The notes beneath the pieces were generated by a model, which did not search any database, was not told the DNA's origin, and saw nothing but the letters and a program-made list of their open reading frames with translations. A stretch of 64,000 nucleotides of DNA from Thermoanaerobaculia bacterium (GTDB lineage Bacteria; Acidobacteriota; Thermoanaerobaculia; Multivoradales; UBA5704), in the NCBI GenBank assembly GCA_044868005.1, contig JBIOVX010000237.1, forward strand, positions 3,852-67,851. Direction: 5' to 3'. Positions within the stretch are counted from its first letter, which is position 1, and every line of letters begins with the position of its first letter. Shown here piece by piece: positions 945 through 19,000 of the stretch. The position numbers and the translations under genes are program-made.

Positions 945-969
945 GGTGCGCGGATTGTTTCACAAGGGC

Positions 970-1857: not shown

Positions 1858-1950
1858 ACGAAAACGCCCGTCGGGTCCTCCCTTTACTGCAAACCGGCAT
1901 CCATCTAAGCTACGGTCCAGTTTCGTACCTGCTGGGGGAGGCCAAACCGG

Positions 1951-3339: not shown

Positions 3340-3340
3340 G

Positions 3341-4204
3341 ATGCTATACGCCGCTTCGATCTTCCTCTCTCTGCGGACCGCCTCGGCTCCGAAGCCCTCA
3401 CCTCCCCTACCCCTCCTCTCCCAGAGGGAGAGGAGGGAGAAAAAAAGAATCTGCCGATTTCCGTCTTTTTTCCCCTCTCTCCCTGTGGGAGAGAGGGGCC
3501 AGGGGAGTGAGGGCTTCGCAGGGCAAACCGTTCTGATCGCCCTCTTCCTCCTCCTCCCCCTCTCCGCCCACGCCGAGGAGATCCGGGGCCGGGTTCAGCT
3601 CCTCGCCCGCGGCGGCCAGGGGCCGGCGCGGGGAAGCGACGTGCGTCAGGCGGTGGTGTACTTCGAGCCCGCGGGCGCGCCGCCGGTGCGGCCGGCCGAG
3701 ACCGCGTTCGAGATGGTCACCCGGCGCAAGACCTTCGAGCCGCGGCTGCTGGTCATCCCGCGCGGCAGCCGGGTGCGTTTTCCGAACGCCGATCCCATCC
3801 TGCACAACGCTTTTTCGGTCTCCTCGCCCAACCAGTTCGACCTCGGCCTCGGCCGGCAGGGGCCGGGCAAGGAGAAGCGCTTCGAGGAGCCGGGCCTGGT
3901 GCGCGTCTTCTGTAACGTGCATCACGACATGGTCGCCTACATCCTGGTGCTGAACACGCCGTATCACGTCTCGCCGGAGGCGAGCGGCGAGTTCGTTCTC
4001 AAGGGGTTGCCGCGCGGGCCGGGGAAGCTGACCGTGTGGCACGAGCAGGCGGACCCTTGGATCGCCGACGTCACGCTGCCGCAGAAGGTGCCGGGACCGC
4101 TCCTGGCCCGCGTCGAGATCGTTCGGCCGCTGATCCCGAGCCATCTCAACAAACTCGGACAGTCCTACTTCCGCTCCCAACGTGACCGCTACAACAACCG
4201 CTGA
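3341..4204 (+). CDS. Periplasmic cupredoxin-fold protein (MauL-like)
   Basis: ORF 3341..4204. The mature part (FEPRLLVIPRGSRVRFPNADPILHNAFS, VRVFCNVHHDMVAYILV) resembles the 'methylamine utilisation MauL-like' plastocyanin-fold proteins. The first ~48 codons are read through the palindromic repeat. The real start is therefore more likely the in-frame GTG at 3485, just before the signal peptide VLIALFLLLPLSAHA. Confidence 0.6.
   Translation: MLYAASIFLSLRTASAPKPSPPLPLLSQRERREKKRICRFPSFFPSLPVGERGQGSEGFAGQTVLIALFLLLPLSAHAEEIRGRVQLLARGGQGPARGSDVRQAVVYFEPAGAPPVRPAETAFEMVTRRKTFEPRLLVIPRGSRVRFPNADPILHNAFSVSSPNQFDLGLGRQGPGKEKRFEEPGLVRVFCNVHHDMVAYILVLNTPYHVSPEASGEFVLKGLPRGPGKLTVWHEQADPWIADVTLPQKVPGPLLARVEIVRPLIPSHLNKLGQSYFRSQRDRYNNR
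3391..3517. repeat. Composite ~127-bp nested palindrome (two REP-like hairpins plus outer inverted arms)
   Basis: Outer arms are GAAGCCCTCACCTCCCCT (3391..3408) and AGGGGAGTGAGGGCTTC (3501..3517). Inner hairpins are CCCTCCTCTCCCagaGGGAGAGGAGGG (3411..3437) and CCCCTCTCTCCCtgtGGGAGAGAGGGG (3472..3498). The centre is AGAAAAAAAGA...TCTTTTTT. The left half and the reverse complement of the right half align along their whole length. Confidence 0.8.
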
Positions 4205-6800
4205 CCGCCGCCGGACCGGCCTGTCGCTGGAGACCCGGATCTTCCTGGTCACCTCGCTGCTCATCGCGCTCCTGGTGGGCAGCGCGGTCGCGGTCACCTA
4301 CGTGCTGCTGCGGCGCATCGCCCGCGAGGCCGCAGCCGACTCCCTGCGGAGCAGCGCCGCGGTGCAGTCCACCTACGAGAAGGAGCGGTACGACCGGTTG
4401 AAGCTGATCTCCGGCCTCTACGTGTCCGATCCGGCCCTCGTCGCGTACCTGGCGGAGGCCGTCGGCACGCGGGATGCGCCGTCGCTGCTCTCCGAGCTCT
4501 CCGACGCCCAGAAGAGGTTGGGCTTCGACTTCGCCATCCTGCTGGATCCCCAGGGCCGCGTGGCGGCGCGCACCGATCACCCCAATGCGGTCGGCGAGGA
4601 CCTCTCGCGGCGTCCTCTCGTCGCCAAGGCGCTGGCGGATTTCGAAGCGAGCGGCGTCTGGCGCGAGGGCAAGCGCCTGTACTATGCGGTCGCCGTGCCG
4701 GTCCAGCAGCAGTTCACCGTCTACGGCTTCCTCATGACCGGCTTCGCTATCACCGACGTCTCCGCGCTGGAGGTGAACCGGGTGAGCGGCGCCGACGTCG
4801 CTTTCGTCGGCGCCGGCGAGCAAGGGCCGGAGATCATGGCGACGACGCTGCCGGCGCAGACGGCCCGCAGCCTGATGGCGGCGCTCTCGGCGAACAGCCG
4901 CGGCATGGGCGACGCCATGCGCGCCGGCAGGGCGATGTCCCAAACGGAGCTCGAGCTCGGGGGGCAGCCCTGGCTCGCTCAGGAATCTCCGCTGCTCGAC
5001 GCGCAGAGCAAGCCGATGGGCGCGACGGTGACGCTGGCTTCGCTCGAGCGCGAGCTCGCCGCCTACCGGCAGATCCAGAACGTGCTGCTCGGCGCCGGCC
5101 TCGCCGCCGTGCTCATCGCGCCGTTCCTCGCCTATGCCTTCGCCCGCCGCGCCATGCGTCCGGTGCGCCGGTTGGTCACCGCCGCCGAGGCGGCGCGGCA
5201 GGGGAATTACGACCAGCAGATCGACTCCGACCGCACGGACGAGGTGGGCCGCCTCGCCCATTCCTTCCACGACCTGCTGGCCGACCTGCGCGAGAAGCGC
5301 GACATGGAGGAGTACGTCACCGAGCTGTCGCGCAACCTGCCGGAGCCCGTGCAGGCGCGCGCCGTGCTGGGGAACGCGCAGAGCCGCGAGGTGCTGCTGC
5401 TCGGCATCGAGCTGCGCCGATACGCCCGCGCCGGCGCCAACGGCGACGCCGGCGAGACGCTGGCGCGGCTGGCGTCCGATCTCGACCGCGTGACCTCGGC
5501 CGTGGCGCGCGGCCGGGGCCTGGTGGAGGGGGTTACGGGCCACCGCGTGCTGGCCCGGTTCGAGGGGGAGGGGAGGGGTTACCGCGCGCTGACGGTTGCC
5601 GCCGGAGTGCTGCAGGCGGAGGGCGGCGAGGCCGGCGGCGGCGACGAGCCGGTGGCGGCGATGGCGGCCGGCAAGGCGATCACCGGTCCGGTCACCTGGG
5701 GAGAGCGCGCCGAGCGGGCCGTCGTGGGCCTGCCCGTGCAGCAGCTCGAGAGCCTGCTGCGCGAGGCCACGCCGGGCGAGCTGCTGCTCTCGCGCGAGGT
5801 GCACGACGAGCTGAAGGACGCCTTCGAGCAGGCCGGCTACCGGCTGGCCCCGCGGCGCGGCATCGTCACGCCGCAGCCGCTCTTCGTCGTCAGCTCGGCC
5901 ATGGCGTCTCGCCTCACCAGCGAGCGCGGCGTCGGCGCCACGGTGGCGCCCGCGGAGCGCACGACGCTCTCCGGCATCGCGCCTGGCGCCCTGCTCGGCC
6001 AGCGCTTCGAGGTCCTCTCCGTCCTCGGCGCCGGCGGCATGGGGATCGTCTACAAGGCGCGGGACCGCGAGCTCGACGACCTGGTCGCCTTGAAGATGCT
6101 GAAGCGCGAGCTGTGGGGCGACACCAGCCAGCTCGACCGGCTGAAGAGCGAGCTCAAGCTGGCGCGCAAGATCACGCATCCCAACGTGCTGCGCACCTAC
6201 GACTTCGGCGACATCGACGGCGTCCCCTACATCTCCATGGAGTACGTGCGGGGAGTGACCCTGCGCTACATGCTCGACCAGACGCGCCGGCTCCCTTACT
6301 CGGCCGGCCTGCGCCTGGCGAAGCAGCTCTGCGCCGGCTTGGGCGCCGCTCACTCGGTGGGCGTGCTCCACCGCGACATCAAGCCGGAGAACCTCATCCT
6401 CGAGCCCACCGGCAACGCCAAGCTGATGGACTTCGGCATCGCGCGGCCCATCGACCGGCTCGCCCCGGGGCAGACCCAGGCCGGCTTCGTGGTGGGCACG
6501 CCGCAGTACCTGCCGCCGGAGATCCTGCAGGGGAAGGACGCCGATCCCCGCTCCGACCTCTACTCCTGCGGCATCGTGCTCTACGAGATCTTCACCGGCG
6601 TGCTGCCGTTCGAGGGACCCACGGCCATGGACGTCATGGTGAAGCACCTGCGGGAGGAGCCGCCGCCGCCGAGCGCGCGCTGGCCCGAGATCCCGCCGGC
6701 GCTGGAGAAGGCCATCCTGCGCTGTCTGGAGAAAGATCCCGAGCGGCGCTACCGCTCGGTGGCGGAGCTGTCGCACGAGCTGGAAGAATTGAGCGCCTGA
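4182..6800 (+). CDS. Transmembrane sensor Ser/Thr protein kinase with HAMP and degenerate cyclase-homology domain
   Basis: ORF 4182..6800. TM (aa ~20-44), ~250-aa extracytoplasmic region, TM (aa ~300-320) and a HAMP-like segment (RPVRRLVTAAEAARQGNYDQ...GRLAHSFHDLLADL). A degenerate class III cyclase-like domain follows (aa ~402-550). The C-terminus is a Hanks kinase (GAGGMGIVYKA, HRDIKPENLIL, DFGIARP, GTPQYLPPE). Confidence 0.85.
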   Translation: MTATTTADRRRTGLSLETRIFLVTSLLIALLVGSAVAVTYVLLRRIAREAAADSLRSSAAVQSTYEKERYDRLKLISGLYVSDPALVAYLAEAVGTRDAPSLLSELSDAQKRLGFDFAILLDPQGRVAARTDHPNAVGEDLSRRPLVAKALADFEASGVWREGKRLYYAVAVPVQQQFTVYGFLMTGFAITDVSALEVNRVSGADVAFVGAGEQGPEIMATTLPAQTARSLMAALSANSRGMGDAMRAGRAMSQTELELGGQPWLAQESPLLDAQSKPMGATVTLASLERELAAYRQIQNVLLGAGLAAVLIAPFLAYAFARRAMRPVRRLVTAAEAARQGNYDQQIDSDRTDEVGRLAHSFHDLLADLREKRDMEEYVTELSRNLPEPVQARAVLGNAQSREVLLLGIELRRYARAGANGDAGETLARLASDLDRVTSAVARGRGLVEGVTGHRVLARFEGEGRGYRALTVAAGVLQAEGGEAGGGDEPVAAMAAGKAITGPVTWGERAERAVVGLPVQQLESLLREATPGELLLSREVHDELKDAFEQAGYRLAPRRGIVTPQPLFVVSSAMASRLTSERGVGATVAPAERTTLSGIAPGALLGQRFEVLSVLGAGGMGIVYKARDRELDDLVALKMLKRELWGDTSQLDRLKSELKLARKITHPNVLRTYDFGDIDGVPYISMEYVRGVTLRYMLDQTRRLPYSAGLRLAKQLCAGLGAAHSVGVLHRDIKPENLILEPTGNAKLMDFGIARPIDRLAPGQTQAGFVVGTPQYLPPEILQGKDADPRSDLYSCGIVLYEIFTGVLPFEGPTAMDVMVKHLREEPPPPSARWPEIPPALEKAILRCLEKDPERRYRSVAELSHELEELSA

Positions 6801-6825
6801 CCGGACCTGACCCATAGGAGGCAGG

Positions 6826-7995
6826 ATGATCGCTTCCCAGGCTGAAGCCCCGGAGCCGTTCGAGCCCGACCGCAGGCTCGCCGAATACGAGATGCTGCTC
6901 GAGATCGGCGTCAAGCTCGCCGGCACTCTCGATCTCCAACGGGTGCTGCAACTGGCTCTCGAGCACGCCGAGCAGGTCTGCCGGGCCGAGACCAGCTCGA
7001 TCTGGGAGCTCGACGAAGAGCGGCGGGAGCTCTTCTTCCGCGTCGTGCGCGGACACGCGGCGGGAGCCATCCGCGGTCTGCGGGTGCCGGTGGGCGAGGG
7101 GATCGTCGGCAGCGTCGCCGAGTCCGGCGAGGCCGCGGCGGTCAACGACGTGACCGCCGATCCGCGCTGGCACGGCGATCCCAAGGGAGCTTTCCAGACG
7201 CGGGCGATCCTCGCCGTGCCCCTGCTCGCCCGCGGCGCCGTCATCGGCGTCGTGCAGCTCCTGAACCCGGTGGACCGCGACCACTTCACGGCGGGCGACG
7301 TCTGGCGCATGCGCCAGTTCGCCGCCATCCTCGCGCCGACGCTGCAGAACGCCCGCCTCTACGCGGCGCAGCGCCGGCAGTTCTTCAACATGGTGACGGC
7401 GCTGGCGGAGACGCTGGAGAAGCGCGATCCCTATACCGGCGGCCACGTCCGCCGCGTCGTCGGCTACTCGTTGCTGCTCGGCGCCGAGATGGGGCTCGGC
7501 CGCGAGGACCTGCGCGAGCTGCGCCTCGCCGCCACGCTGCACGACATCGGCAAGATCACGACGCCGGACCGCATCCTCGGCAAGCCCTCGCCCCTCGATC
7601 CCGACGAGGCGGAGATCATGCGCCGGCACGCGGCGGACGGCGCTTCCATCGCCAGCCACCTCGCCAACCCGTGGGTGCTGCACGGCGTGCGCAGCCATCA
7701 CGAAAGGGTGGACGGCAAGGGATATCCGGACGGTCTGAAGGACGCCGACATCCCGCTCGCGCCGCGCATCATCGCCGTGGCGGACACCTACGACGCCATC
7801 ACCACCAGCCGTCCCTACCGCGCCGGCCTGCCGCCGCAGCGCGCCGCCGCCGAGATCTTCGCCGGCGCCGGCAGCCAATTCTGCCCGCAGGTCGTGGCGG
7901 CCTTCCGCAAGCTGTTCGAGGACGGCCGGTTCCGGCTGGAGACTGCCGATGATCTGCTGTTGTCGGGCGAGGTGCAGGTGTTGGGGACGGCGTGA
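6826..7995 (+). CDS. GAF domain / HD-GYP phosphodiesterase
   Basis: ORF 6826..7995 with AGGAGG upstream. N-terminal GAF-like domain and C-terminal HD-GYP signature (ATLHDIGKI, HHERVDGKGYPDGL). Confidence 0.9.
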   Translation: MIASQAEAPEPFEPDRRLAEYEMLLEIGVKLAGTLDLQRVLQLALEHAEQVCRAETSSIWELDEERRELFFRVVRGHAAGAIRGLRVPVGEGIVGSVAESGEAAAVNDVTADPRWHGDPKGAFQTRAILAVPLLARGAVIGVVQLLNPVDRDHFTAGDVWRMRQFAAILAPTLQNARLYAAQRRQFFNMVTALAETLEKRDPYTGGHVRRVVGYSLLLGAEMGLGREDLRELRLAATLHDIGKITTPDRILGKPSPLDPDEAEIMRRHAADGASIASHLANPWVLHGVRSHHERVDGKGYPDGLKDADIPLAPRIIAVADTYDAITTSRPYRAGLPPQRAAAEIFAGAGSQFCPQVVAAFRKLFEDGRFRLETADDLLLSGEVQVLGTA

Positions 7996-8025
7996 GGACT
8001 GTACTCATTGGCGCGCTACCGAAGG

Positions 8026-8679
8026 TTAGCTATTGTCTCTTGATCGATCAAAAATATCCTCAGCGCTATTACTTGCCTTCAACGTCTTTTGCATACTCCT
8101 GCGGACGATGAAGGCTATGACAATTGGGATAACATAACTCCAGGCTAGAACGAAGTATGCAATCTCCAATTGGCCAGAAGCCCAGAGGAAAGTAGATAAG
8201 AGAGCGGTACCAGAGATCTGAAAGCCGTAAAAGAAAACACGGATCGTTCGAGTTAGCTTGATAGCCAAGTGCTCGCGATACCGAGCTTTCGGATCCTTCT
8301 GACGGAGATTGCTAGCAGTGAAATCTAGCAACGCAAGACTCACATCTTGGCCACCATCTGTATTGCCGTTTATGAAATCTGCGATTTCGATTCTTCTTGT
8401 GCGAAACCGTTGTGCCGCGCGGGCATACCAGGCGTCAAGATAAAGGAAGACAAGAGGTATCAGGCTGCTGGCGGATATGAGCCGTACATCACTCTCAGCC
8501 ACTTCACTGACTCCGAGGCCAACCCCGAGCGTAAGTGTCCACAGAGCCACGGAAAATTGCCTGAGGTGATATTGAACTCCTTCAAGGTGCACGATTCTTT
8601 GCTCAAGTAGCGGTAGCTCAAGCTTGATGATCTCTAGCTGTCTATCTGTGAGTTCTGAGAGATGGTCGCCCTTAGTCAT
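8026..8679 (-). CDS. Small four-helix membrane protein, unknown family (island gene 2, candidate effector)
   Basis: ORF 8026..8679 (-) in the lowest-GC part of the window. A ~40-aa N-terminal amphipathic helix (LSELTDRQLEIIKLELPLLEQRIVHLEG) is followed by hydrophobic helices at aa ~42-58, 67-86, 146-167 and 172-192. They are arranged 2+2 around a ~60-aa charged loop. No signal peptide and no catalytic motif. Confidence 0.75.
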   Translation of the reverse strand: MTKGDHLSELTDRQLEIIKLELPLLEQRIVHLEGVQYHLRQFSVALWTLTLGVGLGVSEVAESDVRLISASSLIPLVFLYLDAWYARAAQRFRTRRIEIADFINGNTDGGQDVSLALLDFTASNLRQKDPKARYREHLAIKLTRTIRVFFYGFQISGTALLSTFLWASGQLEIAYFVLAWSYVIPIVIAFIVRRSMQKTLKASNSAEDIFDRSRDNS

Positions 8680-8882
8680 GGATGAGTTTTACTCCCAAGA
8701 TCGGCTATTCCGAAGTGGGCCTCCGCAGGCGTTACGAAGTCCTCGACCCGGTTGCTGAGAGACGCTGCCAAGCCCGAATCACTCACTCCTGGAAACCTTC
8801 GAGAAGAGTTCCGTTTGTGCAGATGAATCACAGCTGCTCCTCTGGTCCAGCCAACTGCCGTGAGGATAATCCTCGCCCGCCA

Positions 8883-11522
8883 TTATCGGGCGCCTTCCGG
8901 CTGGCGCTCAATATCGACCAGGATAGTGTCTAGATCGACGTGATCCGTCGGGCTTTGCCTAAAACGTAGCTCCCAGGTGGCATCATGCTCGCGTTCGTGC
9001 TTTAGGACATCGCGCAACTCCTCGGGAAGGTTTTCGGCGCGTACCTCTCCATAGCGGATGTTTCGAAACGCTCCCGCGAGCTGTCGAATTTTACGATTCG
9101 AAGTGTCATCCTTCAGGCAGAAGAAAGCCTTCAGGACCTGCGCTGAGACCTTCTTGACGTCAGGATGCTGAAGCTGCAATTGCAAGGCGCCCTGGTAGAC
9201 CATTGAGCGCCGCTGAGCATCACCGCCGCCCTCATTAAGGTGTACCGCGTCAAGACTCAGGCGGGATTTGAAGTCCGGTTCCTTGGAATCGAGTAGTTTC
9301 TGCATTTCCTCGGGAGTGCCGGTAGACCGCAATTCGGTCGTCCCGGCGAATAGCCAGATGCAAGGGTCAAGCTTGAAGAGGTGACCTCCCCGCAGATACG
9401 AGCCGTCCTCCAGCACCGTCAGAAAAAGGTCGTAGACCGGCAAGCCTTCGACATGGGAGTTAATCTCGTCAAAAAAGACGACATGAGTTCGGTTGCGCTC
9501 TTGAGCCTGCGCGCTGGCAAGAGCGTCGAACCAGGAATTAATATTTTGCCGGCTAACGAGTTGGGTAATGTTGAAAAAAAGATGAGGCATGCCAAGAGCT
9601 GCCGCGAGCTTCGACACCAGGAAGGACTTGCCCGACCCAGGGAGGGCGATCAGCATGGCGCTGAAGGAATTCGCGCTGGGCTGGTGAAGGTAATCCTTTA
9701 GCGCCGAGAGCAGACGTGCTATCTCGCGGCGCCGCGAGTCGATAACCTCGATGTACCCGTCTAACTCGTCCATGGCCCGCCACAGCTCAAGGCTATAGCG
9801 CCGCGAGCTTGCATCTCTGGCTATGATGCCAGTCGCCTGTCGCGACGTCTCCCAAAAGTCGCGCTCCTGGGTCCAGCTCAGCGGAAGTACCTGAATGCTG
9901 GGACGGGTTCGCGATGGGAGCACGGTCGCAGTGGCCGTCCTTCGGTAGCTCCCGAAGGAAGTGTCATAGGGGAACTCCCTGTTCTCAAGGCTTCCCGGCT
10001 CTTCACCGAAGGTCTTAAGCGTTTGAATGTTGCCCTGCACGACGTCATAGGCTGCCTTTAGGGCGATCTCGAGCATCTCGGTTCTCCCCGGAGCATCGCC
10101 AACGGCAGCGCCCTTGATCGCATCGCTAACCCCAGCATCCGAAAGGATGATCTGGGAGACAAGCGCGGAGAAGAACATGCTGGCCCGCCCTGAGAGTTCC
10201 TCGCTCACTTCGTCCAAGATGGTCTTGGGCTGGTAGTAGCCAGTCCGTTCCTCTCCATTACCTTCGACGGCGAGGAGGCTTAAACCCTTGGGCATGGCGA
10301 CGACTAGTCGGGGTTGTCTCTCAAGCCCGGGATACCGATCTGAATGTGCGTCCCCGAGGAAGTCTTCGAGTCGGTCCAAGCTTTCCGCGGTGGGCTGCTC
10401 CTCACCGACGAACCACTTGTATATAGGGTGGTCGCTATCTTGGGCGCCTGGAGCAATCCCCTCGCGCTCCATTTGGGCGATGGCCATGGGCGGGAGGAAG
10501 AGCAGGCGCAGCATCCCGTACATCTCTTTTTTTGCCAGTGTATCTAGATAGGTCGGATGGAACTGCTTGCTTGAGATGAACCACTGAGTCTCCCTGTTTA
10601 TGAGGCCCACTGTATGCAACGCTTCGAGCAGAGTAAGTGTGGTTGTGCCCTTGCCGAGATCCTTGACCACGACATAGCGGAAGGGTTTTTGGCTCCCAGT
10701 GGAGTCATTCGTCGCAGGAGGGGCATGGAGTAGGTCCTCGGCGACCGTCGTGAGCGACTCTCGGATGCTCGGGAAGTGCTCTAAGCCGCCTTCGTAATCG
10801 AGGCGTAGCTTCAAGGCCTCGACATCGCGTAGGAGATGCTGCTGCCAAGTAGCGAAGGCGAGCCGTTCCGGATCGAACGGGATCTCAGGGATCTGACGCA
10901 ATAGCTCTTCGAGCCTCGTTAATTCGTAGTCGCGCCCTCCCTGGACTGGTTGGTAACGAAGCTCGAAGTCCACCCGGCGGTCGAGGACCAGCCCGCCCGG
11001 CGTCTCAGCCTGCAGGTTGTAGAGTCGATAGACGCGTGTGGTACCAACCTCCTTCCAGGGGCTGCTGGCCGCTGCCTCGGAATAGGCAGGGGCCAGGTTC
11101 TTCAGATACAAGCCATCGAGCTGTTGATAGTGAATGTGTTGAGGCTTTACACGTCTAAGAGTGAAAGGGTTGATTCCGTCTAAGTAGCGCGGATGGAACA
11201 TTTTGTAGAGTTTGGGCTCGTCATCCTCGGACCAAATACCGATCCCAAGAATCGAGAATGGAGGTGCGTTGACTCGCTCCTGAGGTGGGATCCAGATCTC
11301 TCCTCCGGACTCAGTGGGCTCCCGGAAACGATTCATCCAATAGAGAAAGCGCGCCACCCGTCCGGCGCCGCAGAAGGTCATGACGCGAGAATTGACGTTA
11401 CCCAAGGCTCGCAGGTGTGCCTTGCCCTCCATCGTGCTGAAGCTTGATCTATGCTTGGCTAGCACCCAGTTCTCGTCCACGACCCAGTCGCCGAGCACGA
11501 GGATCTCAATCGGTTTGGACAT
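8883..11522 (-). CDS. PfkB/ribokinase-like domain fused to AAA+ ATPase, unknown family (island gene 1)
   Basis: ORF 8883..11570 (-). Start trimmed to ATG 11522 (MSKPIEILVLGDW) with AAGGAG 6 nt upstream. The N-terminal ~460 aa carry PfkB-like motifs (ILVLGDWVVDENW, FCGAGRVARFL, VVVKDLGKGTTTL). The AAA+ core has Walker A LPGSGKS (nt 9624..9644), Walker B VVFFDE (nt 9465..9482), LFAGTTE and DFKSRLS. Confidence 0.8.
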   Translation of the reverse strand: MSKPIEILVLGDWVVDENWVLAKHRSSFSTMEGKAHLRALGNVNSRVMTFCGAGRVARFLYWMNRFREPTESGGEIWIPPQERVNAPPFSILGIGIWSEDDEPKLYKMFHPRYLDGINPFTLRRVKPQHIHYQQLDGLYLKNLAPAYSEAAASSPWKEVGTTRVYRLYNLQAETPGGLVLDRRVDFELRYQPVQGGRDYELTRLEELLRQIPEIPFDPERLAFATWQQHLLRDVEALKLRLDYEGGLEHFPSIRESLTTVAEDLLHAPPATNDSTGSQKPFRYVVVKDLGKGTTTLTLLEALHTVGLINRETQWFISSKQFHPTYLDTLAKKEMYGMLRLLFLPPMAIAQMEREGIAPGAQDSDHPIYKWFVGEEQPTAESLDRLEDFLGDAHSDRYPGLERQPRLVVAMPKGLSLLAVEGNGEERTGYYQPKTILDEVSEELSGRASMFFSALVSQIILSDAGVSDAIKGAAVGDAPGRTEMLEIALKAAYDVVQGNIQTLKTFGEEPGSLENREFPYDTSFGSYRRTATATVLPSRTRPSIQVLPLSWTQERDFWETSRQATGIIARDASSRRYSLELWRAMDELDGYIEVIDSRRREIARLLSALKDYLHQPSANSFSAMLIALPGSGKSFLVSKLAAALGMPHLFFNITQLVSRQNINSWFDALASAQAQERNRTHVVFFDEINSHVEGLPVYDLFLTVLEDGSYLRGGHLFKLDPCIWLFAGTTELRSTGTPEEMQKLLDSKEPDFKSRLSLDAVHLNEGGGDAQRRSMVYQGALQLQLQHPDVKKVSAQVLKAFFCLKDDTSNRKIRQLAGAFRNIRYGEVRAENLPEELRDVLKHEREHDATWELRFRQSPTDHVDLDTILVDIERQPEGAR

Positions 11523-11639
11523 GATGGACTCCTTGGGAAAGGCGGATGTCGTGGCGGAGACTGCCACCATACGACTTAGAGTAGCCTCGGGTCACTTGTG
11601 CCACCCCTACCTTTCGACAATCTTTGAAATATCGACGAT

Positions 11640-11645
11640 ATTATA
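11640..11645 (-). promoter_or_regulatory. Possible -10 box (TATAAT) for island gene 1
   Basis: Reverse-strand TATAAT at 11645..11640, ~118 nt upstream of ATG 11522. AGACTG lies 17 nt further upstream as a weak -35. Pattern only. Confidence 0.25.
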
Positions 11646-11807
11646 GCGGAGATTGGAAGCCGCAGTCTGGGGCACAAACAGGGGAACCTGAGGTCCTCTC
11701 CCGTACTCGCGGCTCTGCCGAAACACCCGGCGAGTCCATGACTTGCTCCTGTACAGGATTGCCTACTGGCCTGCGCTGGTATCATCTCCCGAAGGACATG
11801 CCACCTC

Positions 11808-13412
11808 ATGCTGCGGTTGCGCTTCGTCGTCAATGGTGAGGATCGCGTCGTTTCGCTGACGGGCAGCGGCCGGGTCCGGCTCGGCCGCGGCAGCGACAAC
11901 GACGTGGTGCTCCCCGACTCCTCCGTCTCCCGCTATCACGCCGAGATCCTCCGCGAGCCCGACGGCTGGTCGGTCCACGACCTCAAGAGCACCAACGGCG
12001 TCCAGGTCAACGGCGTGCCGGTGGAGAAAGCGCCGCTGCGCCCCGGCGACCTGCTGGGCGTCGGCTCGTTCCAGGTCCGCGTCGATGCGGACGAGCCGGT
12101 CTCCGTGCGGCCGCCGAAGCCGGCGGCGCCGGAGAAGGAGGAGGGCTTCGGCAACGCCACGATCATCCGGCCGCTCTCCGCCTTCGCGGCGGACTACGGC
12201 CTCGCCGGCGAGGCGGCGCGGCCCTCTCCGGAGGCCGGGGACGAGGAGTACGTCCGCCGCATGTTCGGCTTCCTCACCCGCCTGGCGCGCATGCTCACCC
12301 TCGCCGAGTCGGTGGACGACGTGCTGTCGCGCGTGCTCGACATGGCCTTCGAGGCCTTCCCGGTGGACCGCGGCTTCATCCTGCTCTCGGACGACTCGGG
12401 CGAGCTGGTCTGCGAGCTGGCGCGCGTCAAGAGCCGCGTGCAGTTCCGCCCCGCCGGCGAGGTGCCGGTCTCCCGCACCATGCTGCAGGCGGTGATGCGC
12501 GAGCGCGTGGCGCTCGTCACCTTCGACGCCCAGGCGGACCAGCGCCTCTCCGGCGGCGAGTCCATCCGCATGCACAAGATCCGCTCGGCGATGTGCGCTC
12601 CGCTGTGGTCGGGCGAGCGCATCATGGGCGTCATCCAGGTGGATTCACCGTTCCAGGTGGGAGCGTTCGGCGAGCGCGATCTCGACGTGCTCACGACGCT
12701 CGCCAACTATGTCGCGGTGGCCGTCGAGCGCATCCGCTACGCGCGCACGGCCGAGCGCGAAAGACTGGCGCGCACGCGGCTCGAGCGCTACCACTCGCCG
12801 GGCGTCATCGAAGAGGTGATGCGCCGCGGCGACGAAGGCGTGCAGAGCCTGCAGAGCGCCGAGGCCACGGTGCTCTTCGCCGACCTCGTGGGCTTCACCG
12901 CCTTCGCCGAGAACGCGCCGCCCGAGAGCGTTGCCGAATCGCTCGACGCCTTCCTGGACCTCTCGGTGGAAGCCATCTTCCGCGCCGGCGGCACCCTCGA
13001 CAAGTTCATCGGCGACTGCGTCATGGCCTTCTTCGGCGCTCCCGTGGCGCAGCCGGACCACGCGCTGCGGGCCGTGCGCGCCGCGATCGAGATCCAGCAG
13101 GGGCTCGCCGCCTGGAACGCCCGCCGGACCGCCGAGGGCCTGCCCGGCTTCAAGGTCCGCATCGGCGTCAACAGCGGTCCGGTGGTGGTGGGGGACATCG
13201 GCAGCTCCCGCCGGGTGGACTACACCGTGCTCGGCAACACCGTCAACGTGGCGGCGCGCCTGGAAGCCCTCGTCGCCCAGCCGGACGACGTCGTGCTCGG
13301 TCCCGAGACCCACCGCCTGCTCAACGGCACGATTCAAACCGAGGCGCTCGGCGAGCTGCAACTGAAGGGACTGCAGCAGAGGATCCGGGCGTATAGGGTG
13401 GCGCGGACGTGA
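11808..13412 (+). CDS. FHA-GAF-adenylate/guanylate cyclase
   Basis: ORF 11808..13412. FHA (GRGSDNDVVLPDSSVSRYHAEI, STNGVQVNG), a central GAF and a class III cyclase domain (ATVLFADLVGFTAF, FIGDCVMAFFGAP, RIGVNSGPVVVGDIGS, YTVLGNTVNVAARLE). Confidence 0.9.
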   Translation: MLRLRFVVNGEDRVVSLTGSGRVRLGRGSDNDVVLPDSSVSRYHAEILREPDGWSVHDLKSTNGVQVNGVPVEKAPLRPGDLLGVGSFQVRVDADEPVSVRPPKPAAPEKEEGFGNATIIRPLSAFAADYGLAGEAARPSPEAGDEEYVRRMFGFLTRLARMLTLAESVDDVLSRVLDMAFEAFPVDRGFILLSDDSGELVCELARVKSRVQFRPAGEVPVSRTMLQAVMRERVALVTFDAQADQRLSGGESIRMHKIRSAMCAPLWSGERIMGVIQVDSPFQVGAFGERDLDVLTTLANYVAVAVERIRYARTAERERLARTRLERYHSPGVIEEVMRRGDEGVQSLQSAEATVLFADLVGFTAFAENAPPESVAESLDAFLDLSVEAIFRAGGTLDKFIGDCVMAFFGAPVAQPDHALRAVRAAIEIQQGLAAWNARRTAEGLPGFKVRIGVNSGPVVVGDIGSSRRVDYTVLGNTVNVAARLEALVAQPDDVVLGPETHRLLNGTIQTEALGELQLKGLQQRIRAYRVART

Positions 13413-14789
13413 TTATTGAAAATATCCGAACACGTCGACGGCGACGTGAACCGGTGAGCTCGCCGCGTTCAGGATCCCGAGCGCTCCGGAGCCGGAGGAG
13501 GCCAGCATGATCAACGCGTTGTTCGCCCGCGTCAGGCCCGCCTTGAAGTTGAGGGTGCTGGTCGAGGACGGGCTCGCGTTGCCGGGGAAGAGCTGCAGGT
13601 AGCCGCCGACGGGCGGATCGATGACCGTGAGGTTGACCGCCAGAGCTTTCGCCGTGCCGGGAATCCCGCACTGGCCCGCGGCGACGAAGATCCGCTGACC
13701 CGGGAGGACGGCCGGACCGCCGTAGGCCCCCGGTGCGTTGCGGGTATCGACCAGCCGGCACGGAGTCAGCGTGTAGTAGTCGAGCGGACCGACGCTGGTG
13801 GCAGGCGTCGGCTTCCAACCGAGCTGGATCACCTCGAAGTCGCTGGCCTTGAGGCTGGCGAAGGCGGGGTTCAGCTCGTCGTTGTTCCAGCGCGTGTCGT
13901 AGGCGCCGGTGACGTACATGTCGGTGCCGTTGTCGGCGATGATGAGCCCGTAGGTCTTCATGGCCTGGAAGATCTTCTGGATATAAGCCGGATAGCCCGC
14001 GAGGCTCTTGCTGCCTTTCAGCCGGAGCCGCGCGCCCAGAGGCGCCGCGTTCGCGTTGGACGAGGTGCTGGCGTCGTGGGAGGCGGGCCAGACGTAGCCG
14101 TTCACCGGGAACACGGTCATGCGGAACGCATGGCGGATCGGGTCCGGACCGAAGGCCTCCTCGTAGCGAATCAGGCCGGGAAGGATGGCGAGGCCGGCGG
14201 CGTCGGCGCTGGTCCAGGTCTCCGGCCGGCGCTCCAGCGAGTCGAGCTTGAAGATGGCTCCCGAGTCCGCCTCCCAGCGCTGGAGGGGGCTGTTCCAGAC
14301 GGCGCGGTACAGCTCGTAGAGGATGCGGTTGTCGCGGTCGACGATCAGCATATGGCGGTCGCCGCCCTGGTCGTCGTTTCCCGCGTAGCCGCCCTCGATC
14401 CACTTGGTCCCGGTCCGAGCTTCGATGGGAATCGGGTAGCCAATCGGCCGGCCCGCTACGCCGTCGTCGCTCTGATTCCCATACGCCGTCCAGGTGATCG
14501 GCTCCAGAGGCTGGGTGCCCGGCACCGTCGTGTAGACCATGCCGTAGATCTCGGGCGGGTCCTCGGCATCGCCGCCGAAGTCCGGGTGGAGCCCGACGTT
14601 GGCGCCGATGAAGTTGATGAAATTCGTGCTGTTGGCATCGACGGGCGCTGCGCTGACGTCGAGGTTCCACCAGTGGTCGGGAGGGTGGATCGGCGGCGGT
14701 GGAGGCAGGGCACCGCCGCGCACGATCTGGCCGCAGACGGAGGCCGGCACGAGAGCTCCGAGGACCGCCACGGCCAGCCACCGCTGCAT
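13413..14789 (-). CDS. Secreted protein of unknown function
   Basis: ORF 13413..14789 (-) with AAGGAGG upstream. Signal peptide MQRWLAVAVLGALVPASVCGQ. A large conserved-looking domain is followed by a C-terminal beta-rich ~110-aa module (PCRLVDTRN...VFGYFQ). The stop abuts the cyclase stop (convergent, no spacer). Confidence 0.7.
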   Translation of the reverse strand: MQRWLAVAVLGALVPASVCGQIVRGGALPPPPPIHPPDHWWNLDVSAAPVDANSTNFINFIGANVGLHPDFGGDAEDPPEIYGMVYTTVPGTQPLEPITWTAYGNQSDDGVAGRPIGYPIPIEARTGTKWIEGGYAGNDDQGGDRHMLIVDRDNRILYELYRAVWNSPLQRWEADSGAIFKLDSLERRPETWTSADAAGLAILPGLIRYEEAFGPDPIRHAFRMTVFPVNGYVWPASHDASTSSNANAAPLGARLRLKGSKSLAGYPAYIQKIFQAMKTYGLIIADNGTDMYVTGAYDTRWNNDELNPAFASLKASDFEVIQLGWKPTPATSVGPLDYYTLTPCRLVDTRNAPGAYGGPAVLPGQRIFVAAGQCGIPGTAKALAVNLTVIDPPVGGYLQLFPGNASPSSTSTLNFKAGLTRANNALIMLASSGSGALGILNAASSPVHVAVDVFGYFQ

Positions 14790-15026
14790 CGACTCCTCCT
14801 TTGATAGTCAAACTTCGATGAGCGGATAAGGTACCGCTGGCGGGCGGTGGATGCAAGGCCTCAACCGCCCGAGGCGATAAGAGAGCATGCTGCCAAGATG
14901 AGATGTGGTTGACGGCCCGGATCTTGCAACCTTTTTGAATCGGTTATCGCTAGCCCCGAAAATCTTTTGCCTATACTGGGTTGACTGATCGGGGTTTGCT
15001 CGAGTGACCGACTAGGAGTTTCCATC

Positions 15027-15401
15027 ATGTCCAACACCACCACCGTAGAGATCCACCCCAACGTCCTATCGACCGCCGCCGTCATCGGCGACAGCGTCGT
15101 CAACCGTATGGGGGAGAAATTCGGCAAGATCGAGGAGCTCATGCTCGACTTGGAGAAGGGGCGCGTCGCCTATGCCGTCCTCTCCTTCCGCGGCGTCCCG
15201 GAGATGAGCGAGAAGCTGTTCGCTATTCCGTTTGAGGCCCTGAAGCTCGACGCCAGCCGTGAGCACTTCACGCTCGACGTCGACCAGAACAAGCTGAAGA
15301 ACGCCCCCGGCTTCGACAAGAATCACCCCCCGCAGGCTTCGGACCGCACCTGGGGCGCCGAGGTCTACAAGTTCTACGGTATCAAGCCCTACTGGCAGTA
15401 A
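15027..15401 (+). CDS. PRC-barrel domain protein
   Basis: ORF 15027..15401 with AGGAG upstream. VIGDSVVNRMGEKFGKIEELMLDLEKGRVAYAVLSFRG is typical of PRC-barrel proteins. Confidence 0.85.
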   Translation: MSNTTTVEIHPNVLSTAAVIGDSVVNRMGEKFGKIEELMLDLEKGRVAYAVLSFRGVPEMSEKLFAIPFEALKLDASREHFTLDVDQNKLKNAPGFDKNHPPQASDRTWGAEVYKFYGIKPYWQ

Positions 15402-15426
15402 GATCGGGGCAGTATCGAGCAGGACG

Positions 15427-15458
15427 GAGGGCGGCCGTACGGCCGCCCTCTTTGTTTT
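15427..15458 (+). terminator. Rho-independent terminator
   Basis: GAGGGCGGCC-gtac-GGCCGCCCTC (15427..15450) followed by TTTGTTTT (15451..15458), 26 nt after the PRC-barrel stop. Confidence 0.75.
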
Positions 15459-15493
15459 GGGCGAGGCCGCGGCGACCGGACGATCGGGACAAA

Positions 15494-16012
15494 TTACATG
15501 TAGGAAATGCCGATCTTGTCCCGCCTGGCGTTATCCCGTCCCTTTGCGGCCACTCCTTTACCTGCTCTCCCCTGGGGCAGCAGAGCCCAAGGGCCCAAGG
15601 CATCCAATGCCTCTTGCTCGCTCAACCTTCTCGCCTGCTCCATAACTCCCGACGGTACCCACTTGGGAAATGGGACTTCCCGGGTAGCATGTCGACCGGA
15701 AGCCGTGTGCTCTTCATGCACCTGCGCTATCTGAACGGCCGGAAATCGCTCCGCCAGGCGCACTAAGGCCGGCCATAACCGCCGGTGTACGAAAGTGATT
15801 TTTCCATTCACGAGACGGCAAACGAGCACATCGTCAGAATCCGTTACTGCCTGAAAGACAGCGAAGATTTGATGGCTTTTGGGATGAGACCACCAGCTTC
15901 CTTTGATGGGCTCGCCGGCAATCGCCTCTGCAAGTCGGAGAACAGGACCTTTAGCGGACGCAAGGACTACACCATGCTTTTGAACAAAGGCGATCGCTTC
16001 GTCGGCGGTCAT
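15494..16012 (-). CDS. Hypothetical protein
   Basis: ORF 15494..16012 (-). It lies 14 nt downstream of the CheB/CheR-HK gene on the same strand. The sequence is non-repetitive and globular-looking (MTADEAIAFVQKHGVVLASAKGPVLRLAEAIAGEPIKGSWWSHPKSH). G+C is somewhat lower than in neighbours. Family not recognised. Confidence 0.6.
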   Translation of the reverse strand: MTADEAIAFVQKHGVVLASAKGPVLRLAEAIAGEPIKGSWWSHPKSHQIFAVFQAVTDSDDVLVCRLVNGKITFVHRRLWPALVRLAERFPAVQIAQVHEEHTASGRHATREVPFPKWVPSGVMEQARRLSEQEALDALGPWALLPQGRAGKGVAAKGRDNARRDKIGISYM

Positions 16013-16025
16013 GGTCCGGTCATGG

Positions 16026-19000
16026 TCAATGCTTGCTTGACCGGGCGAGCAGCGCGTAGATGACCGGAAGGTCGACCGGCTTGGTCAGGTGATGGTCGAA
16101 TCCTGCCTCCCGCGAGAGGCGCTGGTCCTCCTCCTGTCCATAGCCGGTCACGGCCACGAGCAGGGCCCTTGCGGTCCGGCGCCGTTGGCGCAGCCGGCTG
16201 GCGACCTGGTAACCATCCAACCCGGGCAAACCGATGTCGAGCAGGACGACCTCGGGATGGAACGAGCCGGCCTTTTCCAGCGCCGCCGGTCCATCGTGAG
16301 CGGTCTCTACCTCGTGCCCTTTCAAGCGCAGGAGGAGGGCGAGGCTCTCGGCCGAATCCACGTTGTCGTCCACCACCAGGACGCGGCGCGGCGGGGCCGC
16401 GGCAGGGGAGAGCACCGGGCCTACGACGATCCTGTCCCCTGCATGGCCGCGGCGCTCCGGTGCCGTGCTCGCAGGCGCCGAAACGGGCAGGCGCACGACG
16501 AGCTCGCTGCCGTGTCCCAGCCCCGCGCTATGGGCTTCGACGCTGCCGCCGTGCAGCTCGACGAGGCGCTGCACCACCGTCAGGCCGATCCCCAACCCTC
16601 CCCGCGCCCGATCGGAGGAGCGGTCCGCCTGCACGAACAGGTCAAAGACGCGCGGCAGCGTTTCCGGAGCGATGCCGATGCCGTCGTCGCGCACTCGCAC
16701 GACGACCTCGCCGGGGGGCTCGGGCCCGCCGGCCGCCAGCTCGGCCGTCACCCAGAGATGGCCGCCTCTGGGGGTGAACTTGGAGGCGTTGTTCAGGAGG
16801 TTGCCGAAGACCTGTTCCAGCCGGACGGGGTCCGCGTCGAGGTAGACCGGCTCGCGCGGCAGCGACATCGACAGCTCCTGGCCGCGGGCTTCGATGAGAT
16901 GCCGGGTCAGCTCCACCGCCTGCTCGAGGACGACCGCCAGCTCCAACCGCTCTCTGCGCAGGCTGATCTGGCCCCGGTTGATGCGGGACACCTCGAGCAG
17001 GTCTTCGATCAACCGCGTCATGTTCTGAATCTGCCGGGTCATCATCTTCCGCGCCTGCTCGACCGCGGCGCCGTCGGCCCCCTCGGCCTGCAGCACGTGC
17101 GCGGCATTGAGCAGGGGCGCCAAGGGGTTGCGCAGCTCGTGGGCCAGCAGGGCCAGGAACTCGTTCTTGCCGCGGTCGGCCGCGGCCAGCTCCTCGACAC
17201 GCTGGTGTAGAACCTTTTCCAGTTGCTTGAGCTTGTCCACGTCGACGAGCAGGATCACCACGCCCTCGATCTTGTCCTCCAGGGTCCGGTACGGCCGGAC
17301 GCGCAGCGAATACCAGCGCCCCTGGCTGTCCTGGACCTCGCGTTCCCGGGGGCTCGCCGTGGCGATCACCTCCGCCAGGAAGGGCTCCAGATCGGGAACG
17401 CTGAGCTTGAGCTTGATGTCGCCGATCGGCCGGCCGACGTCGGTCGGGATCAGGCTGAAGATCTCTCCCGCCATCGGCGTGAAGCGCCGCACGCGCAGGT
17501 CCTGCCCGAGCATGATGATGGCCATCTCGACGCTGCCGAGGAGGTTGATCAGATCGTTGCTGAGCTGATTCAGCTCCAGGTTGCGGTTCTGCAGCTCGTC
17601 GTTGACCGTGGCCAGCTCTTCGTTGCTCGACTGGATCTCCTCCTTGGAGGTTTCCAGCTCTTCGTTGATGCTCTGCAGCTCCTCGTTGGCCGACTGCACC
17701 TCCTCATTGGCCGACTGCAGCTCTTCATTGGCGGCCTCCTGCTGCTCGATCACCGATTGCAGGTATTCGCCCGTGGCGGCCAGCTCCCGCGCCAAACGGG
17801 CGTTCTCCCGTTCGGCGGCCTCCTCCTCCGCGGCAGCCTTGGTCCGTGGTTTTGCGGCCTTGCCCCTGTCCCTCTTCCCTCGCGGCAGAGAAGCCGGTGC
17901 TGGAACGGGCTCTTCGAACAGGACCAGGAAGCCGCCTTCCCCTGCCGAGCTTCCCTTGACGGGAACCACCTCCAGGTCGACCTCCCGGGTGACGCCGTCG
18001 GCCTCGACCCGCACCCCCTCCTCGCGCACCGGGACGTTGTCCTTCCTGGCCTTGTTGATCGCGGCCCGCAGGGTGACGAGCAACCCTTCCCGCGTCATCC
18101 TGAGCAGGTTCAGGCTGGCCTTGCCCGGCGCCGGCGCCAGATAGGGCCCGGTGTCGCCGCGGAACTGCAGGATCTCCAGCTCGGCGTTGACCAGCACGCC
18201 GGGCGGGGCGTATCTTGCCATGAGGATGCGGTCGGCCTCTGTCCGCACGTCGGATCCGGCTGGCTGCAGGCGGCCCGGGCCGTGGCCGGGCTCTGCTCGG
18301 CCCTGATAGCGGCCGGCAGGCTGGCCGAGGACCGTCCGGTGCGTGCCTGGCTTCTTGGCGTAGATCTTGTGCTTGGCGTCTGCGGCCTCGAACAGGGCGC
18401 GGTAGGAGCCGATCATCTCCGAGCTCCCCAGCAAGAGAAAGCCGGCCGGCTTCAAGGCATAGTGCAGGCGCTCCACGAGCCTCTGTTGCAGCGCCGGCTC
18501 CAGGTAGATGAGCAGGTTGCGGCAACTGATGAGGTCGATCTGGGAGAAGGGCGGGTCGGTCAGCACGTTGTGCCGGGCGAACACGCACATGTCGCGGATC
18601 GGCTTGCTGATGCGGTAGCTGCCGTCCACCTCCGCGAAGAACCGCCGCAGGCGCTCCGGCGAGACGTCGTGCGTGATGTTCTGCGAGTACACGCCCGCGC
18701 GGGCCTTGTCGATGCACTCTACGTTCAGGTCGGTGGCGAAGACCTGGACCGGGAGCTGGCTGCCCCTGGCCGCGGCGAGCTCGGCGATGGCGATGGAGTA
18801 AGCCTCCTCGCCGGTCGAGCACCCCGGCACCCAGACGCGCAGCGGCTCTTGTCCGGAGCGGTTCTTCAACAGCTTGGGCAAGACCTTCGCCTTGAGTGCT
18901 TCGAAGGTCTCCGGGTTGCGGAAAAACCTCGTCACCCTGATGAGGGTGTCCTGGTAGAGGGCCTCCACCTCTCCGGGGTTTTTCCGTAGGAAGCGCGCGT

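Follow-up and report, generated by a model that had tools for sequence, protein, structure and literature searches.

A low-GC islet in a Thermoanaerobaculia genome carries a predicted HldE-type pseudokinase–AAA+ protein and a PDC-M50A-type membrane protein from separately distributed families

The window analysed here, a 64,000-nucleotide stretch of the Thermoanaerobaculia bacterium assembly GCA_044868005.1 (contig JBIOVX010000237.1, positions 3,852 to 67,851 of the forward strand), contains a low-GC islet of ~3.8 kb (7996..11807, no strand assigned) with a GC content of 0.48–0.59 against ~0.71 in its flanks. Of all GC dips in the 64-kb window, this one (8.0–11.8 kb) is the deepest. An open reading frame (ORF) scan of the window identifies two co-oriented genes in the islet, both on the minus strand. 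Gene 1 (8883..11522) codes for an 879-residue protein with a predicted HldE-like pseudokinase domain and an AAA+ ATPase, and gene 2 (8026..8679) codes for a small membrane-type protein with four helices (217 residues) that belongs to the PDC-M50A superfamily. Host genes form the borders: a GAF/HD-GYP gene ends at 7995 and an FHA-GAF-cyclase gene starts at 11808. Neither the ORF scan nor the independent gene calls in metagenome-assembled genomes (MAGs) reveal an integrase or any gene in the islet besides gene 1 and gene 2, no tRNA or Rfam element is found within it, and no att-like or convincing repeats are found at its borders. The first-pass annotation had described two co-oriented genes alone in a low-GC islet, with no nuclease, cyclase or TIR partner; the ORF models, the foreign composition and the presence of only these two genes bear this out.

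Both genes lie below the host in composition, and they also differ from each other. Gene 1 has a GC content of 0.573 and a third-codon-position GC (GC3) of 0.68, gene 2 has values of 0.480 and 0.49, and the four flanking host genes range over 0.68–0.72 and 0.89–0.94. The GC3 of gene 1 exceeds that of gene 2 by 0.19. This gap suggests different donors or different residence times, and it argues weakly against a long shared history of the two genes.

The ORF of gene 1, taken from its first ATG, spans 8883..11570 and would code for 895 residues. The 879-residue start at 11522 is preferred because an AAGGAG sequence (11529–11534) lies 6 nt ahead of that ATG, all gene 1 homologues begin at the same position in the alignment, and gene calls made independently for two NCBI MAGs arrive at 879 residues; the length first proposed for the protein therefore stands. 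The 285 nt upstream (11523..11807, minus strand, GC 0.565) presumably hold the gene 1 promoter. They include a perfect TATAAT at 11640–11645 on the minus strand, and a consensus scan of that strand finds no full sigma-70 site. The spacer between the two genes is 203 nt long (8680..8882, minus strand, GC 0.567) and contains no predicted terminator-like hairpin; one weak promoter-like site is present at 8911–8882, and the frequency of such sites is that of the background. Window positions 3419–21522 are 100% identical to contig JBIOUN010000213.1 of GCA_044867135.1, and positions 1–15286 are 99.99% identical to a second MAG, GCA_044866565.1. The order of gene 1 and gene 2 is kept in two MAGs and three read-set assemblies of the same population, which count as a single observation because they are 99.99–100% identical to each other.

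The N-terminal half of gene 1 (residues 1–465; 10128..11522, minus strand) is assigned by hhalign to a diverged PfkB/ribokinase-fold domain of the HldE/HldA type with its catalytic motifs lost. A profile of residues 1–540 from 25 family members (A3) aligns with a two-sequence profile of HldE and HldA at 90.1% (E 1.6e-6, 213 columns; query 4–277, template 9–223), and 20 column-shuffled controls reach at most 0.5%. The same profile scores 68.5% against the Escherichia coli HldE kinase domain alone and gives no hhalign signal against E. coli ribokinase. Searched as a hidden Markov model (HMM) alone, it returns nothing significant from the PDB, the only match being 21 residues of HldA (4e84) at E ~1, and the kinase-like half is below detection in Pfam and NCBIfam. 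The PfkB-like N-terminal domain recognized in the first-pass annotation is thus confirmed and narrowed to the HldE/HldA type. We take the order of secondary-structure elements in the AlphaFold (AF2) model of gene 1 to follow the ribokinase fold.

Among 25 gene 1 family members, residues G11, D12, W19, T161, R166 and D288 are invariant, D16, G52, R183, D185, K291, G292 and K319 are each present in 24 members, and G54 is present in 23. The paired motifs, with gene 1 given first, are GDWVVDENW and GDVMLDRYW, CGAGRVA and GGAANVA (the GG-loop), TTRVxR and TITKLR, RxDFE and RLDFE, VVVKDLGKG and LVLSDYAKG, SSK and DPK, and LLxxPP and LLTPN. The substrate-side motifs are therefore kept, namely GDxxxDxxW, the GG-loop, TTRxxR, RxDFE, DLxKG and SSK. 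The NxxE motif is lost: LLTPNLSE of HldE pairs with LFLPPMAIAQ, the family reads LPPxAxA, and the site itself is variable (P, G, H or N at position 344; P, Q, E or D at position 345). In active PfkB kinases the catalytic Asp of the GAGD motif is essentially invariant. No such residue appears to be present in gene 1, since Asp and Glu together reach 80% of the 25 sequences in no column of residues 295–545; the best positional candidate for the GAGD site, where the alignment is of low confidence, reads G-R-A-S (A447, S448).

The hhalign match and these motifs indicate descent of the N-terminal half from heptose-7-phosphate kinases of the HldE/HldA branch. With NxxE and the catalytic Asp lost, the domain is read as a pseudokinase with the substrate side of its pocket preserved; it is predicted to bind a small molecule, most likely a phospho-sugar, nucleotide-sugar or nucleoside-like molecule, and its loss of activity is deduced from the loss of motifs. 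The domain also carries a helical insertion of ~80 residues (residues ~197–280; 10683..10934, minus strand; alignment columns ~245–340) with helices at 201–209, 218–243 and 251–266 in the AF2 model. The insertion is found only in the subfamily of the window (P0001–P0007) and, in a shorter form, in P0014, and distant members are gapped there. A search with the N-domain profile for other architectures finds none; the domain is always fused to the AAA+ module.

Between this half and the AAA+ module lies a linker modelled at low confidence, with a small alpha/beta element and a helix ahead of the Walker A motif (residues 466–613; 9684..10127, minus strand). The predicted local distance difference test score (pLDDT) is below 50 at residues 466–477, 508–515 and 532–539; strands are placed at 546–549, 567–570 and 575–579 and a helix at 595–613, and W557, R582 and Y590 are invariant in the alignment. 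The C-terminal part (residues 614–879; 8886..9683, minus strand) comprises an AAA+ core, a lid subdomain and short C-terminal helices, as supported by Pfam, PDB profiles and Foldseek. Pfam family PF00004 matches residues 623–691 (E 1.2e-6, 29.4 bits against a cutoff of 21.2), the PDB profile matches are to VCP/Cdc48/FtsH, and the fold matches in Foldseek searches of PDB and viral structures are to ClpA/B, Vps4, Skd3, HslU, ClpX, RuvB, Lon and MoxR. These results agree with the single AAA+ module described earlier; the ~100-residue helical tail described with it is mostly the AAA+ lid subdomain, leaving ~45 extra residues by AF2 secondary structure. The whole model has a predicted template modelling score of 0.82 from an alignment 16 homologues deep. 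Searched as a whole with Foldseek against PDB and BFVD, it has no full-length analogue; the AAA+ module dominates that search, which does not resolve the N-domain.

The AAA+ ATPase is predicted from its conserved residues to be catalytically complete. Walker A (PGSGKS, residues 628–633; 9624..9641, minus strand) has G629, G631 and K632 in all 25 members and Ser or Thr at 633, and Walker B (VVFFDEIN, residues 681–688; 9459..9482, minus strand) has D685 and E686 in all 25. The segment LEDGSYLRGGHLFKLDP (residues 704–720; 9363..9413, minus strand) is modelled as a helix end and a beta-hairpin, with strands 708–711 and 714–717 directly before the sensor 1 strand (722–727); Y709 and G713 are each conserved in 21 of the 25 members and P720 in all of them. 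Sensor 1 (WLFAGTT, with T728) and a DFKSRLS motif containing R754 follow (9255..9356, minus strand). T728 is present in 24 of the 25 sequences, K747, D750, F751 and R754 in all, and R810 of the lid in 24. By position, R754 is a candidate arginine finger and R810 a putative sensor 2; Walker A, Walker B, sensor 1 and both arginines are invariant or nearly so. In published AAA+ classification, a pre-sensor-1 hairpin without a helix-2 insert suggests the HCLR-like group. The AF2 model of gene 1 has no helix-2 insert and points to an HCLR-like module; the stretch from Walker A to Walker B scores best by sequence with classical-clade VCP/Cdc48, so the clade is not settled. The pore-loop segment (strand 2/helix 2) reads N-I-T-Q-L-V-S-R-Q-N with N651, T653 and Q654 conserved, and none of its positions is a conserved aromatic residue across the 25 members, N-I-T-Q standing there instead.

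The gene 1 family is small and widely scattered. Only 16 homologue clusters are present among 5.8 billion proteins, and 185,579 species genomes hold at least 24 near-full-length relatives and two AAA-only partial matches. Counts of gene 1 relatives, taxa and loci here and below refer to the matches listed. They cover at least seven bacterial phyla and one archaeal MAG at 24–38% identity, with members in Acidobacteriota, Planctomycetota, Bacteroidota, Nitrospirota, Pseudomonadota, Actinomycetota, Chlorobium, Ignavibacteria and one Bathyarchaeota MAG. The GC content of the relatives lies below that of their flanks in 22 of 24 cases (mean difference −0.074, Wilcoxon p ~1e-4). Searches of PADLOC, NCBIfam and PHROGs return generic P-loop similarity only; at E ≤ 1 the PADLOC matches are RmrA, mad8 and IetA, all through the P-loop. 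A plasmid search yields one weak partial match of 24% identity, to a gene annotated 'Ryanodine receptor Ryr', and a literature search found no paper combining PfkB, AAA+ and anti-phage activity for such a protein. Gene 1 is a rare, previously undescribed, stand-alone family of predicted pseudokinase–AAA+ proteins.

Gene 2 belongs to a different and larger family. Its AlphaFold model (pLDDT 73) consists of four long helices in two hairpins (residues 12–54, 65–104, 130–167 and 174–215). Hydropathy identifies IAYFVLAWSYVIPIVIAFIV (residues 171–195; 8095..8169, minus strand) as the sole strong hydrophobic segment (Kyte-Doolittle 19-residue mean 1.8–1.95), the three others being moderate (1.1–1.3). 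The protein is likely membrane-located. The two-plus-two transmembrane (TM) topology previously assigned to it is plausible: the modelled hairpins agree with it, but only one segment is strongly hydrophobic. Gene 2 has no match in the PDB by fold or by sequence and none in Pfam. Its first hairpin with the basic DAWYARAAQRFRTRR helix (residues 41–94; 8398..8559, minus strand) matches the PADLOC model PDLC04686 (PDC-M50A) weakly, at E 8.1e-5 over 54 residues. The close relatives of gene 2 form 12 clusters, and all 12 match PDC-M50A. An exhaustive HMMER search of 1.84 billion proteins collects 186 representative clusters at E ≤ 1e-3; in an extended set of 126 family members, 69 match PDC-M50A models (best E 3.5e-17) and nine match DUF2270, a predicted membrane protein. 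R95 is invariant across the family and W47, F78 and I99 are nearly so. By these profile matches, gene 2 is assigned as a new member of PDC-M50A, a known candidate family. The earlier statement that the pair matches no named system accordingly holds for gene 1, with its generic P-loop matches, and fails for gene 2. Other Pfam matches of gene 2 relatives (Rv2743c, DUF2207_C, UbiA and others) look like noise from TM composition. Searches of phages, plasmids and IMG/VR return no relatives of gene 2.

The relatives of gene 2 sit ~60–110 nt 3' of a co-oriented partner gene, and the identity of that partner varies. One relative, P0027, is found in L008:2954-4912, L009, L010 and L043, always 82 nt 3' of a 369-residue protein whose N-terminus carries DUF4062 (E 9e-30), which makes a second recurrent pairing of the membrane module. 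A relative with 60% identity to gene 2 (L041:666-2772) has a Cys-rich C-terminal extension of ~100 residues with weak zinc-ribbon matches, and its partner is a 345-residue ORF of no library family, without a match in Pfam, PADLOC or PDB; an R-x4-H motif resembling that of HEPN proteins, noticed by eye in this ORF, is unverified for want of such a match. The partner in L040 is a HEAT-like protein. The C-terminal extensions of two long family members, P0084 and P0137, have no match in PDB or Pfam. In L006 the relative P0028 follows a cupin-like ORF, and its neighbourhood (L006:8001-16732) is defence-type. An OLD/GajA/AriA-like ABC ATPase is coded there (PADLOC E 1e-19 to 1e-24), together with a NACHT-FGE-sulfatase protein and a bAvd/reverse transcriptase pair (a diversity-generating retroelement).

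Outside the population of the window, the two families are not found together. The gene 1 relatives provide 31 independent loci, drawn from species genomes and metagenomic contigs, a lower bound in which 23 loci have at least 1.5 kb of downstream sequence and 17 have that much on both sides. Searches of these loci by tblastn, with the gene 2 family HMM and with a 126-member superfamily HMM find a gene 2 or PDC-M50A-type gene in none of the 31, and none of six independent gene 2 contexts contains a gene 1 relative. The small four-TM gene expected downstream of homologues of the 879-residue protein does not recur in the 31 loci, and several gene 1 relatives are followed by no gene in the same orientation. 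All-against-all clustering of neighbouring ORFs finds no family common to more than two loci, and a single shared cluster covers two. Small TM neighbours of gene 1 relatives are a heterogeneous, mutually unrelated set present in a minority of loci, and were judged unremarkable. The closest non-identical relatives of the two genes (66% identity for gene 1, 69% for gene 2) are unlinked, and gene 1 and gene 2 are found together in one MAG population only (99.99–100% DNA identity). The first-pass annotation had proposed a dedicated two-gene system and had itself named such a lack of co-occurrence as grounds against it; the proposal is left unsupported. Adjacency within one foreign islet is insufficient to define a system, and here the co-occurrence test overturned the headline claim.

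The explanation we favour, with a confidence slightly better than even, sees in the islet a small patch of DNA gained by horizontal transfer, on which two independently mobile genes of conflict type, possibly antiviral, lie side by side without forming a conserved system; gene 1 would act as an AAA+ switch gated by a ligand. A dead pocket with sugar-phosphate-side residues, permanently fused to an intact AAA+ module, is read most simply in this way. A ligand would bind the dead HldE-type pocket, the bound ligand would gate oligomerisation or ATP hydrolysis of the AAA+ ring, and the ring would then remodel a macromolecular target. The lack of an aromatic pore loop suggests that this target is perhaps not threaded like a Clp substrate. 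Gene 2 would be an independent small helical membrane protein, a module found 3' of many different partners. It could have come to lie beside gene 1 by chance, at an intergenic position that tolerates insertion. Alternatively, this lineage may have paired gene 1 recently with a membrane module of promiscuous habit, which is possible because gene 2 relatives habitually sit 3' of variable partners.

Several observations weigh against parts of this explanation. The genes are adjacent, co-oriented and both foreign, with no terminator between them, which makes co-acquisition and co-function in this lineage possible. The census of gene 1 loci is a lower bound, and many of the metagenomic contigs are short. 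Over the C-terminal third of the kinase fold the alignment is poor, and the kinase-like half may have an unusual active site. The hairpin and the HCLR-like assignment of the AAA+ module depend on an AF2 model whose alignment has 16 sequences. Phage and IMG/VR searches find no gene 1 relatives on phages or viral contigs, and ordinary genes of metabolism, the envelope or signalling make up most annotated gene 1 neighbourhoods.

A role in biological conflict, that is, in defence against phages or mobile elements, is the most likely setting for gene 1 because of its patchy spread, foreign composition and occasional defence-island neighbours, and we place its likelihood somewhat short of even. Conflict-type neighbours are present in 5 of 27 gene 1 loci, as scored with a small ad hoc probe set (L028, L001, L044, L020 and this window). 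The clearest case is L028 (L028:9977-19174), from a Candidatus Aminicenantes MAG (CAVYQZ010000010.1). Here overlapping ORFs in the orientation of the gene 1 relative begin 248 nt downstream of it and code for an HsdM-like protein, a 281-residue protein, an HsdS-like protein, a SIR2-like protein (matching PDB entry 8w9l at E 9e-57) and HerA (matching 8wiv at E 9e-153). Genes of type I restriction-modification (R-M) and a SIR2-HerA defence system are nested together in this run; no HsdR is found within the locus. In L001 (L001:1-6875), a relative with 66% identity to gene 1 is preceded by a 1280-residue SIR2-NACHT-HEAT protein and a 1063-residue LRR-Roc-COR-TIR protein, both typical conflict-system architectures, and in L020 a reverse transcriptase gene and an Mrr-like gene lie near the gene 1 relative. 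Finally, a 189-residue CyanoTRADDas_TM protein with two TM segments (2TM; E 2.5e-15) is coded directly upstream of and co-oriented with P0008, a distant gene 1 relative (L044:413-982 and L045:1522-2091), with a HATPase_c_3 protein and a DDE transposase nearby. A relationship between this CyanoTRADDas_TM neighbour and gene 2 was considered and rejected (hhalign 0.1%).

A defence role of gene 1 is plausible. The more specific possibility, that gene 1 is a new single-gene immune or conflict protein in which a dead heptose-kinase receptor for a phospho-sugar, nucleotide-sugar or nucleotide-derived signal gates the AAA+ motor that carries out the response, with a PDC-M50A-type membrane protein, a module that changes between many cytosolic partners, recruited in this lineage, is rather unlikely. 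If true, it would be the first use of a PfkB-fold pseudokinase as an immune sensor. Should gene 1 be an AAA+ conflict protein gated by a ligand, a dead PfkB/HldE pocket would join CARF, SAVED, SLOG, STING and TIR among the small-molecule receptors of prokaryotic immunity, and would point to pools of phospho-sugars or nucleotide-sugars as a monitored signal. The small, intact family and the absence of a recurrent partner make gene 1 directly testable by single-gene expression. For gene 2, the broadening of PDC-M50A to ~186 representative clusters beside varied partners helps to decide whether the module is an effector, an anchor or a sensor.

Alternatively, gene 1 could be a regulatory or chaperone AAA+ protein outside biological conflict, tuned by a sugar-phosphate metabolite and spread as an accessory metabolic function. 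The analogue would be CbbX, the AAA+ Rubisco activase that is regulated by ribulose-1,5-bisphosphate. The metabolic, envelope or signalling character of most annotated neighbourhoods, which bear no defence hallmark, is consistent with this proposal, as are the sugar-side motifs retained in the kinase-like pocket, the lack of a specific PADLOC or PHROGs match, and the near absence from mobile DNA (none on phages or viral contigs and one weak partial plasmid match). No conserved operon partner or client gene is present in the 31 loci, however, the family is extremely rare and scattered with a foreign composition in 22 of 24 genomes, and some copies directly adjoin bona fide defence systems. A metabolic regulator carries a modest minority of the probability.

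In the two-gene proposal, gene 1, an NTPase sensor or motor, would detect infection and activate gene 2 as a membrane-damaging effector, the pair forming one abortive-infection system. In its favour, two adjacent, co-oriented genes, 203 nt apart with no predicted terminator, share one foreign islet in an arrangement kept in the two MAGs and three read-set assemblies. It also draws on the usual position of gene 2 relatives directly 3' of a co-oriented gene, on the listing of the gene 2 family in PADLOC as a two-gene defence candidate, and on the one other gene 1 relative with an unrelated 2TM conflict-type gene (CyanoTRADDas_TM) directly upstream. Against it stand the lack of co-occurrence in the 31 and six contexts, also with the superfamily profile, the unlinked closest relatives (66% and 69%), the absence of any recurrent gene 1 partner and the GC3 gap of 0.19; in addition, the near-identical pair-bearing assemblies amount to one observation, and gene 1 matches no PDC-M50B model. 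We consider a dedicated two-gene system improbable.

It is very improbable that gene 1 joins a working sugar or heptose kinase to an ATPase for envelope or nucleotide-sugar biosynthesis: its homology to HldE/HldA and its GDxxxD, GG-loop and DLxKG motifs fit such a role, but equivalents of NxxE and GAGD are absent with no conserved acidic residue in 295–545, no lipopolysaccharide (LPS) or sugar-nucleotide genes recur nearby, ribokinase gives no hhalign signal, and NCBIfam does not name the gene. Least probable of all is that the islet is decaying junk, the non-functional remnants of transferred DNA, as its strongly foreign composition, intergenic insertion and lack of mobility genes might suggest, since neither ORF is truncated, every residue invariant in its family is preserved, a canonical Shine-Dalgarno sequence is present, and the sequences are identical across independent assemblies.

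Other features of the surrounding DNA lie outside the islet. Just beyond window position 1, a sister MAG contains a PhdYeFM antitoxin and PIN toxin pair (L052:15736-16361), ~9.5 kb from the islet on the gene 2 side. At 13413–14789 (minus strand), adjoining the FHA-GAF-cyclase gene, an ORF of 458 residues begins like a signal peptide (MQRWLAVAVLGALVPASVCG) and belongs to no Pfam family. A second, shallower GC dip (14750–16000, GC 0.57–0.62) contains a PRC-barrel gene at ~15027–15401 on the plus strand (mapped from L048) and a 93-residue ORF without a family match (14861–15142). Next to it, positions 16026–19820 on the minus strand code for a 1264-residue fusion of CheB methylesterase, CheR methyltransferase, PAS, HisKA, HATPase and receiver domains (Pfam, L048:1703-5497), an unusual all-in-one chemotaxis-adaptation and histidine-kinase architecture. 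The motif QEMAHGYGLDHS, which recalls a metalloprotease site, occurs in a 459-residue ORF at another GC dip (34445–35824, minus strand, GC 0.60); this ORF has no PDB sequence match. The region 49000–52000 holds more dips of moderate depth (GC 0.61), where several candidate ORFs overlap one another.

The two genes were compared with several known systems. Kiwa consists of KwaA, a four-TM protein, and KwaB (DUF4868), and RADAR of RdrA, an AAA+ protein of ~900 residues, and RdrB, an adenosine deaminase, sometimes with a small membrane protein. The islet resembles Kiwa by analogy only, in having a small multi-helix membrane protein beside a large cytosolic protein; it differs in that neither gene matches KwaA or KwaB in PADLOC, no DUF4868 is found by Pfam, and the pairing is not conserved. 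RADAR is similar in its large single-AAA+ protein of comparable size, its non-ATPase N-terminal region and its optional small membrane gene. Unlike RADAR, the islet has no deaminase and no RdrA or RdrB match in PADLOC at E ≤ 1, and the N-domain of gene 1 is kinase-derived. Gene 2 was also considered as a SLATT or CBASS/Pycsar TM effector and rejected, as it has no Pfam match and the islet has no cyclase. The FHA-GAF-cyclase beside the islet is a high-GC host gene outside it, and of the 12 close gene 2 relatives one touches SLATT_fungal (E 0.006) and one a CBASS 2TM model (E 0.06).

The closest counterparts of gene 1 are found separately for its two halves. The D-glycero-beta-D-manno-heptose-7-phosphate kinase HldE/HldA (PDB 4e84) is colinear with and homologous to the N-terminal half, sharing GDxxxDxxW, the GG-loop, the lid motifs TxxxR and RxDFE, and pairing SDYAKG with KDLGKG, DPK with SSK, and LLTPN with LLxxP. 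Gene 1 differs from HldE/HldA in lacking NxxE, GAGD and the catalytic Asp, in the ~80-residue helical insertion of its subfamily, and in that its domain is always fused to AAA+ and, among the matches listed, lies outside LPS gene clusters. The best structural matches of its AAA+ module are HCLR-type proteins (ClpX, the D2 domain of ClpA/B, HslU, Skd3 and RuvB), which share with it Walker A and B, in the model a hairpin before sensor 1 and the lack of a helix-2 insert and, by position, sensor 1, an 'xF..R' Arg and a lid Arg; gene 1 differs from them in lacking the conserved aromatic-hydrophobic pore loop, a protease partner and a Clp N-domain.

For gene 2 the known relative is PDC-M50, a two-gene cassette (FAM_00415>>FAM_00416) and untested phage defence candidate (Payne et al. 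2024, bioRxiv 10.1101/2024.01.29.577857), nominated because BREX, DISARM or type I R-M loci contain copies of it. In the literature searched it appears only in a supplementary table of that study (bioRxiv 10.1101/2024.01.29.577857). Gene 1 and the examined upstream partners of gene 2 relatives match PADLOC only by generic P-loop similarity, so no PDC-M50B component is present. The resemblance to PDC-M50 thus lies in gene 2 and its close relatives, which match PDC-M50A and, like it, form a small component beside another gene.

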